Shown here: positions 26,342 to 28,148 of the stretch, piece after piece
Layout of the letters: the number at the start of each line of letters is the position of its first letter
Position numbering within the stretch: position 1 is the stretch's first letter
Virus record (IMG/VR): IMGVR_UViG_2565956711_000013
Span: 1 to 30,818 of that record
Source of the DNA: a virus
Lineage: Duplodnaviria; Heunggongvirae; Uroviricota; Caudoviricetes
Reading direction: 5' to 3' (one strand)
Length of the DNA: 30,818 nt
Notes under the pieces: model-generated
Seen by the model: only the letters and a program-made list of their open reading frames with translations
Databases searched by the model: none
What the model was told of the DNA's origin: nothing
Position numbers and translations under genes: made by a program

Positions 26342-27337
26342 TTACGCCAGTACGCCTATTGCCAGCGCACGATCGATAAAACGAAATATCAGCTCCAGCT
26401 GGGAGCCATACTTCTCTTCAAATGCCACGGTATCCGCATGCAGCTCGTCGTGATGCTTTCTGCACAAAGGCAACACAAAGAGGTCATGCGCTTTTGTTCC
26501 CATTCCCCCCTGACCGTGACCTATCAGGTGGTGGGGATCATCAGCGGGCTTTCCACAACATGCACACGGCTGTGTCTTAACCCAGCGCGTGTACTTTTCA
26601 TTAACCCAGCGGCGACGTTTTGGGCGTAACATAAAAGACTCCGGCGACTCCGGATCCACTTTCAGCGCCAGCACCTTTTTTGCCTTATCCTGGATGATGC
26701 TGGTGGCAGGAACCGAAGGCACAAGGTCACTTTCCCGGGTGACAGACGGCACAACAGGCTTTGGTAATCTCAGTGCCTTACGGGCTGCACTTTCCGGTAA
26801 GGCATCCGCCAGGTCATTACGAATCAGCCACCAGCACAGTTCCGGCATTGTCACAACGTGACTGTCATCAAAACCGAGATCCCGACGTACAACAGACAAC
26901 ACCCAGCGGGCACAGTTATCCGTTGCCATTGATTCCAGCCGTTCCGTGAACTGATCGCGCAACTGGTTATCGCAGTGCCAGCACAGACGGATTGCGCCCG
27001 GCGCGTGTCGCATTGTTGTCATGTTCTCGCTGTGCCAGTCGGAATGAGGCCACTGGCAGCCTTTTTCACGAAGTAACCAGCTTTCAAGACATTCCACGCC
27101 ACCAGCACGACGAATCACTGCCTCATTGCGGAACACGGCCCGAACGGCAGGATCATCCGCCAGCGGTTGTGATGCCGCCGGAACGGCACCACTGGCGAAA
27201 GATGAATAACGTTCCGGCTCAGGCTCCAGCAGGACACGCCCCTGCATAAACAGGGGCATCAGCTCTGAACCTGGTCTGAACAATACGATCCCCATACGCG
27301 GGGCAATTTCAGGGGTCAGTAGTGCTCTCACGGTCAC
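26342..27337 (-). CDS. Nin-region protein with C-terminal HNH/His-Me-finger-like motif
   Basis: 331 aa; C-terminus CACCGKPADDPHHLIGHG...PLCRKHHDELH suggests an HNH-type zinc-finger nuclease fold; N-terminal domain unassigned. Confidence 0.5.
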   Translation of the reverse strand: MTVRALLTPEIAPRMGIVLFRPGSELMPLFMQGRVLLEPEPERYSSFASGAVPAASQPLADDPAVRAVFRNEAVIRRAGGVECLESWLLREKGCQWPHSDWHSENMTTMRHAPGAIRLCWHCDNQLRDQFTERLESMATDNCARWVLSVVRRDLGFDDSHVVTMPELCWWLIRNDLADALPESAARKALRLPKPVVPSVTRESDLVPSVPATSIIQDKAKKVLALKVDPESPESFMLRPKRRRWVNEKYTRWVKTQPCACCGKPADDPHHLIGHGQGGMGTKAHDLFVLPLCRKHHDELHADTVAFEEKYGSQLELIFRFIDRALAIGVLA

Positions 27338-27338
27338 C

Positions 27339-28148
27339 TCAATGAACGGTATCGAGCAGCTTTAACAGCTCAGGGAATCGGGATTCGAAGAAATGCGGCT
27401 GCGTCTCGCGCGGATTTGCGGGACTGGTGATGTTCTTGCCGAACATGCAGCCTTTCGCTGTCAGCGACCAGAATTTTTTGATGTTGTTAATCGCGGTACG
27501 GCTGTATCGTTCGCGCTGCTCGACGATCCCCAGCTTCACCATCTGGTGATATGCCTGATTAGCCGTCAGGCGGATACCATACTGCTTCAGCAGTGCACTC
27601 AGTGACAGCGTGGGGCGGCTTGAACCATCAGGCGCGTCAGCAGGAGCATCAATGGCATAGCGCGGTGCCAGATTCGGTAAGCCAACAGCCTCCTGGAGTT
27701 TCTGACAGGCACCAAGCACTGAAGAGTTAGACAGGTTTAATTCCCGGCGCATAAAGTCCAGCAGGATCACGCCAGCCTGCATCTTGTCAGCAGCCTGCCC
27801 GGATAATTTTTCCGGTGTGCTGGTTACCATATCGAAAGTACGGATCACCTTCAGATGGAATGACGGGCTGATCCACATTGCATAGGCATACACCAGTTCC
27901 TTACAGACATACGTTCCCCGTTCATTTCCCCCATGAATCACACTCACCGGGTCAACACCCAAATTCTGGGTGTTGGTTAATTCATGAACAAGCTCAACAG
28001 TTTGTTGGCTGGAAAGAAACTTTCCTGGCTCCTTGGTTCTGGCATTTGCACCAGATGCTACTGCTGCGCGATGCAGATCGTTCAGGCTGTAACGCCCATA
28101 AGCATCACGACGAACTTCAATACCATCAATAACCATCAGATTATTCAT
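27339..28148 (-). CDS. KilA-N domain protein
   Basis: 269 aa; N-terminal region resembles KilA-N DNA-binding domains; C-terminal domain unassigned. Confidence 0.6.
   Translation of the reverse strand: MNNLMVIDGIEVRRDAYGRYSLNDLHRAAVASGANARTKEPGKFLSSQQTVELVHELTNTQNLGVDPVSVIHGGNERGTYVCKELVYAYAMWISPSFHLKVIRTFDMVTSTPEKLSGQAADKMQAGVILLDFMRRELNLSNSSVLGACQKLQEAVGLPNLAPRYAIDAPADAPDGSSRPTLSLSALLKQYGIRLTANQAYHQMVKLGIVEQRERYSRTAINNIKKFWSLTAKGCMFGKNITSPANPRETQPHFFESRFPELLKLLDTVH

Follow-up and report, generated by a model that had tools for sequence, protein, structure and literature searches.

The closest described relatives of the two genes studied here are orf44 and orf45 of phage SfV and gp48 and gp49 of mEp460, which are essentially the same genes and lie in the order LexA-like, RusA, KilA-N, DUF968 and Q. 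In the SfV and mEp460 records they are given as 'unknown' or carry the PHROG-derived names 'transcriptional regulator' and 'HNH endonuclease', and they show no notable difference from the genes described below. KilA-N is named for a host-killing protein. For DUF968, the classification of His-Me finger nucleases groups the family with YbcO and describes RusA, Q and antirepressor genes as neighbours, together with Erf and Rad52 fusions (PMC5714182). DUF968 is fused to recombinases in some proteins, and an Orf-like N-terminal part was claimed for Gram-positive members (PMC4118853). In lambda, the HNH-type nuclease NinG/Rap is encoded by a nin-region gene that lies after the replication genes and before Q, and it is, with RusA, the positional and presumed functional analogue of the DUF968 protein (PMC5714182). 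The E. coli K-12 member of the family, YdfU, belongs to the uncharacterised 'y-ome' genes, and no biochemically characterised member of either the KilA-N protein family or the DUF968 family was found in the literature that was searched.

The window analysed here is the whole 30,818-nucleotide stretch of DNA from a tailed-phage record (Caudoviricetes, IMGVR_UViG_2565956711_000013). On its minus strand, a RusA Holliday-junction resolvase gene (28168..28557; Pfam RusA E=1.1e-14, phrog_34, annotated as RusA in relatives) is followed by the gene for a KilA-N domain protein of 269 aa (27339..28148; SfV orf44/mEp460 gp48 type), by a DUF968/YdfU-family gene encoding 329 aa (26342..27331, stop codon 26342-26344; SfV orf45/mEp460 gp49 type) and by the late-gene antiterminator Q (25576..26328), which is of the YdfT type with four CxxC zinc knuckles (Pfam Antiterm E=9.5e-54). 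The gaps between these four genes are 19, 7 and 13 nt. Downstream of Q, also on the minus strand, lies a strong intrinsic terminator (25447..25468) with a 9-bp GC-rich stem and a T-tract, which precedes the next gene, as its start is placed with PHROG support, and is a candidate tR'-type target of Q. Together the four genes make up a single compact early operon in an SfV-like prophage. An earlier note on this DNA had placed two large proteins at 26342-28148, immediately upstream of Q and in the nin-region slot with RusA, and had read them as a KilA-N domain protein and an HNH-motif protein; this was borne out, with a KilA-N head in one and a C-terminal HNH motif in the other, and both reading frames exist on the minus strand. 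That of the KilA-N gene has an ATG start with an AGAGGAG Shine-Dalgarno sequence 5′ of it. For the DUF968 gene, the longest open reading frame (26342-27337, 331 aa) had been taken, and the boundary had to be moved from 27337 to 27331: a GTG at 27331 lies just 3′ of a GAGGTG Shine-Dalgarno sequence, and all annotated homologues are 329 aa long with the equivalent GTG start. The best explanation is that the KilA-N and DUF968 genes are separate, co-transcribed delayed-early genes with their own ribosome-binding sites, located where the nin-equivalent region ends on the right. Scans of this part of the DNA for Rfam families and for repeats gave no relevant match. A preprint on the prophage Pas sRNA deals with neither gene.

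The KilA-N DNA-binding head (aa 1-110; 27819..28148, minus strand) was assigned by Pfam PF04383, which matches aa 7-109 with E=2.2e-22 and 79.3 bits (cut-off 23.8). The protein matches phrog_129 over its full length (E=3.6e-124), and proteins 98-100% identical to it are annotated as 'KilA-N domain-containing protein'. Among otherwise near-identical loci the head occurs as about three alleles (100, 69 and 52% identity). With the whole-protein AF2 model as query, Foldseek gave weak matches to the Mbp1/APSES structures 1bm8 and 1mb1 (probability 0.41-0.47, target TM 0.47-0.48, E~1-1.7).

The remainder of this protein is a C-terminal module (aa 111-269; 27342..27818, minus strand), predicted to consist of a helical hairpin, a disordered loop and a winged-helix-like beta-alpha unit. 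The isolated half (aa ~111-269) matched no Pfam family at E<=10 and no NCBIfam model; ANT/KilA-C (PF03374) and the other Pfam antirepressor C-domains gave no match in it, and a PDB profile search with the module alone returned nothing significant. In distant phages, among them some from Pseudomonas, Hamiltonella, Paenibacillus and Ruminococcus, the same module follows Bro-N, Rha, KilA-N and unclassified heads, with 31-45% identity. Seven distant carriers likewise lacked any match to a Pfam antirepressor C-domain and showed only sub-threshold matches to PadR, Replic_Relax and F-93_WHD. Its conserved motifs are LNLSxSS, LPxYA(V/I)D and FWSxTxKGxxYGKNxxSPxNPRETQPH. Judged by these alignments, the C-terminal half is a conserved, mobile module, and the modularity that had been proposed for the KilA-N protein was confirmed, since this half occurs behind other heads and alleles of near-identical loci have exchanged their KilA-N heads. 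The AF2 model gives secondary structure with pLDDT 75-89 over aa 180-267, and weak structural and profile hints point to PadR, MarR, DnaD-N and RTP; in this model the module resembles a helical hairpin joined to a winged-helix-like DNA-binding module. Bro-N and Rha proteins that carry the module adjoin cro/cI or replication genes.

A prophage-encoded protein with a KilA-N-like N-terminal head and a second domain recalls BstA of Salmonella BTP1 (PMC8585504), and the KilA-N protein might on these grounds be a defence protein acting by abortive infection or inhibition of replication. We consider this highly improbable. The PADLOC BstA model missed the KilA-N protein at E<=0.01 while detecting the control BstA-BTP1 at E=1.9e-124, and direct comparison gave only E=0.37 by BLASTP and E=0.084 by hhalign. 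The BstA gene belongs to the immunity region, 3′ of cI, and lysogens express it (PMC8585504), whereas the KilA-N gene lies deep in an early lytic operon. A direct repeat flanking the start of the KilA-N gene, as in a BstA-type aba element, was looked for and was absent. Membership of the BstA family is thus largely refuted: the C-domain, the locus and the expression logic differ, and there is no HMM or profile similarity.

The second protein belongs to DUF968. Pfam PF06147 matches aa 162-328 with E=3.5e-81 and 271.7 bits (cut-off 27.8), covering model positions 2-171 of 171, and phrog_96 matches the full length (E=2.9e-177). Its C-terminus is a His-Me finger (HNH) nuclease domain (aa 245-329; 26345..26599, minus strand) with an intact motif, CxxC(256,259)...DDPHH(264-268)...HD(282,283)...CxxHH(290-294)...H298, to which HNHc_6 in Pfam also gives a weak match (aa 253-310). 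The residues expected of a His-Me finger, C256, C259, H267/H268, H282/D283, C290, H/C293, H294 and H298, are conserved, and the motif is intact across relatives at 25-99% identity. Some relatives have lost DDPHH and retained the N-terminal domain, so the function under selection in the family may not always need catalysis. The best PDB profile matches of the domain, YbcO (3g27) and the IscB HNH, were both below threshold. When the whole-protein model was searched against BFVD with Foldseek, just the HNH core was matched, with a stand-alone DUF968 protein at E=7e-6 and further matches to HNH, Ref-like RecA-dependent nuclease and EndoVII proteins. The neighbours of the model in the PDB included Cas5-HNH and Cap5, none with E<0.2. 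Kinship with NinG/Rap (PF05766) was examined and rejected: Pfam gave no match at E<=0.01, and the hhalign alignment was confined to the 13 columns of the CxxC knuckle (probability 2.5%). Likeness to Orf/NinB was also dropped (hhalign of the DUF968 family alignment against lambda NinB, E=0.83).

Many HK97-like phages require an HNH partner for their terminase, and this common need would be the ground for seeing in the DUF968 protein a terminase-associated HNH protein acting in cos cleavage and packaging. The layout of the window makes this extremely improbable. The DUF968 gene belongs to the early operon and precedes Q, 4 kb from the terminase-side HNH gene, and the slot of the HK97 gp74 type is already filled by that gene, a canonical PF01844 HNH (22181-22618) directly upstream of the small terminase subunit TerS (21566-22060).

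The part of the protein left uncovered by Pfam was next to be delimited. Such a part had been expected to take up two thirds of the protein; it exists, but by Pfam it comprises the N-terminal ~160 aa, that is, half. The N-terminal domain (aa 1-190; 26762..27331, minus strand) is family-specific and has no Pfam model. In a set of 1.84 billion proteins it is matched by just 204 clusters (50% identity), and phrog_11007 spans aa 3-135. It contains a putative zinc-binding core (aa 92-121; 26969..27058, minus strand) of the form C-x7-[HC]-x16-C-x2-[CH], a beta-hairpin followed by a helix. The AF2 model has pLDDT 70-92 over aa 60-190, with the hairpin at 104-117 and the helix at 118-124. In relatives at 25-51% identity the presumed ligands are C92 (24 of 24), H or C at position 100 (22 of 24), C117 (24 of 24) and C or H at position 120 (24 of 24), and hairpin position 109 is His in just three of the 24. 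The swaps between His and Cys at positions 100 and 120 represent covariation of zinc ligands without a catalytic His. A profile search with an alignment of this domain only found no relative in the PDB. On its conservation pattern, the N-terminal half appears to bind zinc in a structural role and to lack catalytic residues. Its origin as a degenerate copy of the HNH domain was considered and found no support, since hhalign gave E=0.13-0.39 and probability <1% with both shallow and deep alignments and only the Cys/His spacing is reminiscent. A 2334-aa repeat protein (P0330) with 21 weak matches to the N-terminal domain was discarded as a repeat-driven false positive. Between the two domains lies a linker (aa 191-244; 26600..26761, minus strand) modeled with low confidence (pLDDT <50 at 194-242). 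Its length differs among relatives, and it ends in a conserved basic patch, PKRRRW, in which P237 and K238 are nearly invariant.

Searches at the level of single domains and of predicted structures, which had been suggested as a check, were thus run for both proteins. When the halves were scanned separately against Pfam, NCBIfam and PADLOC, no match was obtained, in agreement with the expectation that half of each protein is without a curated domain model, and only the HNH core found a fold match in BFVD. PDB sequence searches (phmmer for each protein, and family profiles including those for the N-terminal domain alone and the C-module alone) returned nothing significant; weak matches to CHMP3 and S100-A9 were judged to be chance matches of helical segments. 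Foldseek searches of the PDB with the whole-protein AF2 models, which are of moderate confidence (pLDDT 71 and 76), gave no match with E<0.2 for either protein, and every fold and PDB match outside the HNH core was below significance. PHROGs holds full-length families for both. These uncharacterised families, phrog_129 and phrog_96, and K-12 YdfU are the full-length matches, rather than any characterised replication or recombination accessory protein.

The proposal that the additional domains are toxic or other effectors found no support. Under this reading, expression of either protein would kill or arrest a naive host, as with P1 KilA; the KilA-N name, the harm that an unregulated HNH nuclease could do to host DNA and a weak PADLOC match of the KilA-N domain to PDC-S22 (E=1.6e-5) can be cited for it. 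That fragment was the only match to anti-phage defence models, and neither half has a counterpart among the toxin, defence or enzyme families of Pfam, NCBIfam, PADLOC or the PDB. Moreover, the predicted folds are DNA-binding-like in the C-terminal half of the KilA-N protein and structural zinc-like in the N-terminal half of the DUF968 protein. The block containing the two genes, with 96-98% DNA identity in SfV and mEp460, is widespread, being carried by a large share of the genomes of E. coli, Shigella and Stx phages. Of 5426 complete E. coli genomes, at least 1036 have it; carriage by about a fifth or more of these genomes, in an early operon repressed in lysogens, also makes a toxic function quite unlikely.

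The neighbors of the DUF968 gene were compared across loci. Among 80 loci with 98-100% identical DUF968, the C-module lies directly upstream in 75, with the head and Q exchanged freely, and the adjacency of a KilA-N head plus C-module to DUF968 appears again in a branch where identity of the DUF968 protein falls to ~37%. This linkage, together with the 7 nt between the two genes, would fit a model in which the two proteins act jointly, the C-module bringing the DUF968 nuclease to specific DNA or controlling it there, for instance to attack competing phages or plasmids or to counter host defence. However, another gene lies upstream in 57 of 65 distant DUF968 loci, which were collected with distant relatives as queries: a DNA methyltransferase in 35, RusA in 13, or a Rha-type regulator. 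In K-12, ydfU is preceded by rem/hokD/relBE, and in many phages that have the C-module beside cro/cI or replication genes, DUF968 is absent from the surroundings. Apparent Rosetta-stone fusions of KilA-N and DUF968 in databases were rejected because their irregular junctions and internal duplications are typical of deletions or mis-assemblies, and defence models gave no matches. We therefore regard this model as unlikely. A related form, in which the conserved C-module of KilA-N/Bro-N/Rha regulators and DUF968 are a cooperating pair of genes and a DNA-targeting adaptor directs or licenses the nuclease at the early-to-late transition, would fit the linkage that persists in close relatives despite swaps of head and Q and recurs in one distant branch; we hold it to be rather improbable as well. 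If it were true, both Pfam-less domains would be new interaction or DNA-structure-recognition modules.

On the other side of DUF968, a Q-type antiterminator is directly 3′ in 42 of 51 diverse loci, and the antiterminators concerned come from four families with no relation to one another (PF06323, PF03589, PF06530 and DUF1133). Close relatives exchange Q alleles and keep DUF968. With this constant place beside Q, the DUF968 protein might have a role in late transcription rather than in recombination, acting when expression turns from early to late, either on DNA or RNA ends that it processes or as an accessory factor. Yet four unrelated Q families argue against a specific physical partnership, and the arrangement is equally explained if DUF968 is the last gene of the nin module beside a recombination hotspot. 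The HNH domain and the associations with RusA, Erf and Rad52 point to DNA recombination (PMC4118853, PMC5714182), and we judge a function tied to Q to be very unlikely.

The best explanation, which we hold with moderate confidence, is that the DUF968 protein is a nuclease for recombination or replication intermediates and the KilA-N protein an early DNA-binding regulator. The DUF968/YdfU protein would be a putative zinc-dependent His-Me finger (HNH) DNA nuclease; nuclease activity is its most likely property, and its substrate is most likely DNA arising in phage recombination or replication. A flexible basic linker would tie the HNH domain to the non-catalytic zinc domain at the N-terminus, which may recognise the DNA substrate. 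Processing of such intermediates would take place shortly before Q activates the late genes, a job that may be likened to that of Rap/NinG and RusA in lambda-type phages. The KilA-N protein, for which DNA binding and a regulatory role are likewise most likely, would be a sequence-specific early regulator of the Bro-N/Rha/KilA-N 'antirepressor-like' class. Its exchangeable head is proposed to set the DNA specificity, and the C-module may provide a common function such as oligomerisation or a second contact to DNA or protein.

Both genes are already catalogued, very common and ordinary, and there is no sign of a toxin or of a new system. As standard components of a very common prophage type they matter little at present. 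Their value is as targets for function discovery, namely a y-gene, ydfU, and two conserved domains without a curated model. With both domains defined, thousands of prophages would be better annotated, and it could become clearer how lambdoid phages handle their DNA just before late gene expression.

Compared with known systems, the KilA-N protein shares its two-part design, its place in an early operon and the C-module (31-45% identity) with 'antirepressor-like' Bro-N/Rha/KilA-N regulators, such as Pseudomonas F10 gp36 'Ant', APSE-2 protein G and the Medea1 Rha-family protein. These carriers, all uncharacterised, have another head, and their slot is usually near cro/cI or replication genes and not before Q. 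By position, HK022 Roi may be an analogue of the KilA-N protein. The closest solved structure to the HNH domain, although sub-threshold (E=0.38), is DLP12 YbcO (DUF1364, PDB 3g27, His-Me finger group 7), which aligns over H..G..G.GTK..DL......C..CHDE and is likewise encoded by a nin-region gene beside rusA. YbcO is a 96-aa single-domain protein of uncharacterised function that lacks both the linker and the zinc domain at the N-terminus. YdfU (b1560) of the K-12 Qin prophage has the same two-domain structure and lies directly before Q. It differs in its length of 349 aa, its longer linker and its diverged N-terminal domain (~50% identity), and Qin has the rem/hokD/relBE genes upstream of ydfU in place of a KilA-N gene or RusA. 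Overall, YdfU is 57% identical to the DUF968 protein with a near-identical HNH domain, and the Q-like YdfT (b1559) beside it is 94% identical to the Q protein of this locus.

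Every real gene between 24.5 kb and the end of the window lies on the minus strand. In transcription order, an O-like replication initiator (30021-30803) is followed by a PerC-family regulator (29530-30024), a Dam-family methyltransferase (28877-29563; Pfam Dam, E=1.2e-45; PADLOC MTase_II), a 108 aa protein with a LexA DNA-binding domain only (28554-28880; Pfam LexA_DNA_bind over aa 1-65, E=2.9e-19), RusA (28168-28557), the 269 aa KilA-N protein (27339-28148), the 329 aa DUF968 protein (26342-27331) and the Q antiterminator (25576-26328). The ORFs and the Pfam matches to KilA-N and DUF968 confirmed the claim of the earlier note that a KilA-N gene and an HNH-motif gene stand just upstream of Q. 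The gaps are 19 nt (RusA/KilA-N), 7 nt (KilA-N/DUF968) and 13 nt (DUF968/Q), and each of these genes has its own Shine-Dalgarno sequence. The longest DUF968 ORF starts at 27337; the annotated homologues are all 329 aa and start at GTG 27331, which is preceded by GAGGTG. The remaining sequence of the window belongs to a prophage of SfV type, which has an integrase, a contractile tail like that of Mu, a head of HK97 type and a terminase accompanied by a PF01844 HNH partner of its own.

Other features of this region were also recorded. The initiator gene carries 4.3 tandem copies of the 15-bp unit CAGATTTTGACGGGT (30590-30653), which encode a repeated SDPSKSDASKS peptide. The lambda O gene holds origin iterons, and by analogy these repeats are probably origin iterons inside the initiator gene. 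A sub-threshold Rfam 'mir-5880' match (30587-30661) corresponded to the same repeat, and no hidden non-coding element emerged from Rfam and repeat scans of this region. The Dam methyltransferase is named 'phosphoadenosine phosphosulfate reductase' in RefSeq mEp460 (gp45) and in phrog_33262, which looks like annotation carry-over from fused proteins. The LexA-domain protein lacks an S24 peptidase domain, its gene shares 4 nt with the start of RusA, and it is conserved as SfV orf42 and mEp460 gp46; such a non-cleavable LexA look-alike of a phage early operon could sit on SOS boxes. Q is followed at a distance of ~100 nt by a strong intrinsic terminator (25447-25468, minus strand; 9-bp GC-rich stem and T-tract), which comes before the start that PHROG supports for the next gene (25168-25494); the lysis genes follow. 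It is likely a tR'-type terminator overridden by Q.

Pfam KilA-N spans aa 7-109, and Pfam gave no match over the rest of the KilA-N protein. The AF2 model (pLDDT 76) has four segments: the head is followed by a long hairpin of helices (114-154), then by a disordered loop and finally by a beta-alpha-alpha-beta4-alpha unit (180-267). Foldseek matched the head weakly to Mbp1/APSES, a likeness expected of KilA-N domains. For aa ~180-260, it returned weak DnaD-N, PadR, RTP and DdrC-N matches; a PDB profile search with the C-module (aa 111-269) gave MarR- and PadR-like chains weakly, and distant carriers of this module showed sub-threshold Pfam matches to PadR, Replic_Relax and F-93_WHD. These hints, independent of one another but all weak, point to a winged helix in the predicted structure.

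Within the KilA-N family, conservation is higher in the C-half than in the head. With the C-half alone, tblastn found 31-45% identity in Pseudomonas, Hamiltonella (APSE), Klebsiella, Paenibacillus and Ruminococcus phages, and the shared motifs are LNLSxSS, LPxYA(V/I)D and FWSxTxKGxxYGKNxxSPxNPRETQPH[FY][FY]. The suggested modularity of KilA-N proteins was borne out: in distant phages Pfam places the C-module behind Bro-N, Phage_pRha, KilA-N or unrecognised heads, and head alleles are swapped. Such exchange of domains is well known among the 'antirepressor-like' regulators of phages. C-module carriers of other phages adjoin cro/cI or replication genes. The KilA-N protein would be an early regulator that binds DNA, of the Bro-N/Rha/KilA-N class.

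BstA, a prophage abortive-infection protein, is also headed by KilA-N (PMC8585504), and its sequence was retrieved via its published aba sequence. The PADLOC BstA model recognised BstA itself (E=1.9e-124, positive control) and gave no match to the KilA-N protein; direct comparisons of the two were non-significant, and their genomic settings differ.

In the DUF968 protein, Pfam DUF968 spans aa 162-328, with a weak HNHc_6 match at aa 253-310. Its AF2 model (pLDDT 71) also has four segments: a small, poorly defined beta unit (aa 1-50); a helical domain modelled with confidence (aa ~56-190), in which a beta-hairpin (104-117) is followed by a helix (118-124); a disordered linker, variable in length, with a conserved PKRRRW patch at its end; and a C-terminal domain (aa 245-329), likewise confident. 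This last domain holds a complete HNH signature (CxxC, DDPHH, HD, CxxHH, H298), kept in relatives from 99% to ~25% identity. The best PDB profile matches, YbcO (3g27) and the IscB HNH, were both sub-threshold and aligned across the motif. Foldseek matched HNH modules weakly in the PDB and, in BFVD, stand-alone DUF968 (E=7e-6), HNH proteins, Ref-like RecA-dependent nucleases and endonuclease VII. These neighbours agree with the published His-Me finger classification, which groups DUF968 with DUF1364/YbcO (PMC5714182). A recombination role has been proposed for this group from RusA/Q/antirepressor neighbours and Erf/Rad52 fusions (PMC5714182; PMC4118853). A packaging role is filled by another gene: a canonical PF01844 HNH (22181-22618, minus strand), located just upstream of a small terminase subunit of P27 type (21566-22060, minus strand), is the usual packaging HNH and is separate from that of DUF968.

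No Pfam, NCBIfam or PADLOC model covered the N-terminal 160 aa; this part and the KilA-N C-half are indeed unassigned, as had been noted. An exhaustive search with aa 1-190 among 1.84 billion proteins returned 204 clusters only (50% identity), and full-length matches were nearly all 320-370 aa; a long repeat protein among the matches proved a false positive. C92 and C117 are shared by all 24 relatives of 25-51% identity; position 100 is His/Cys in 22 of them and position 120 is Cys/His in 24. His/Cys interchange at fixed positions is typical of metal ligands. Because of this swapping, C-x7-[HC]-x16-C-x2-[CH] on the hairpin-helix unit was read as a putative structural zinc site, not a second active site; position 109, at the place in the hairpin where the general base of an HNH would be expected, is His in just 3/24. 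A degenerate HNH copy was unsupported by hhalign (E=0.13-0.39, shallow and deep alignments). Profile search found no PDB relative of this domain, and no resemblance to lambda Orf was detected. Three relatives (P0301, P0315, P0376) have lost DDPHH and retain the N-domain ligands, which hints at a separate, nuclease-independent role for the N-domain; the HNH zinc knuckles are also partly lost in this sub-branch.

Neither unassigned half matched a defence, toxin or enzyme family in Pfam, NCBIfam or PADLOC, and the suggestion of toxic effector domains found no evidence. We infer, as the reading with best support, a pair of roles: the regulator and, in the DUF968 protein, a zinc-domain-plus-HNH nuclease that would act on phage DNA intermediates.

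The pairing of the two genes was compared across loci. One set comprised 80 IMG/VR loci whose DUF968 gene is 98-100% identical. In 75 of them the C-module is found directly upstream; the KilA-N head comes in three alleles (~100%, ~69% and ~52% identity), and only 31 have the Q allele of the window. The C-module and DUF968 therefore travel together, with mosaic joints inside the KilA-N gene, at the head/C-module junction (~27819, minus strand; loci L010-L089), and at the DUF968/Q boundary. The adjacency recurs in a branch whose DUF968 is ~37% identical. Across 65 diverse-relative loci, the upstream gene is a DNA methyltransferase of four kinds (35), RusA (13), a KilA-N type (8) or another Rha-type protein (5); downstream, Q antiterminators of one of four unrelated families were found in 42/51. 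We conclude that the constant feature is DUF968 as the last early gene before Q, and that the KilA-N neighbour is frequent but optional. Database KilA-N/DUF968 fusions were rejected as linkage evidence; with irregular junctions and internal duplications, they look like deletions or mis-assemblies.

Fused C5-cytosine and Dam methyltransferases (754 aa) stand just upstream of DUF968 relatives in loci such as L106 and L148-L157; with three other types, methyltransferases fill this slot in over half of the diverse relatives. In the window, the Dam gene is three genes upstream. Public collections also contain chimeric polypeptides in which pieces of RusA, LexA-like, KilA-N, DUF968 and Q proteins are joined at irregular points (P0001-P0003, P0010, P0043, P0061, P0122, P0133, P0202). 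Some of them duplicate DUF968 internally, and most likely they are deletion derivatives or arose when several similar prophages were collapsed in assembly.

Both genes are real and already catalogued, and both families are known and extremely common, in clusters of thousands titled 'KilA-N domain-containing protein' and 'DUF968 domain-containing protein'. The 3 kb block from RusA to Q shares 97-98% identity with phages vB_EcoM-720R4, Ayreon and mEp460, and 96.5% with SfV and many Stx2c phages. Of 5426 complete E. coli genomes, 1036 have it at a coverage of at least 80% and 3745 have at least part of it. The remaining value lies in two well-conserved domains without a curated model or assigned role. 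Lambda Rap/NinG occupies a position analogous to that of the DUF968 protein and does not share its family, the match being a 13-column CxxC segment alone. The ydfU-ydfT pair is found in Qin, a cryptic prophage of E. coli K-12: YdfU has the architecture of the DUF968 protein and 57% identity to it, YdfT is 94% identical to the Q of the window, and Qin differs in having rem/hokD/relBE upstream of ydfU.
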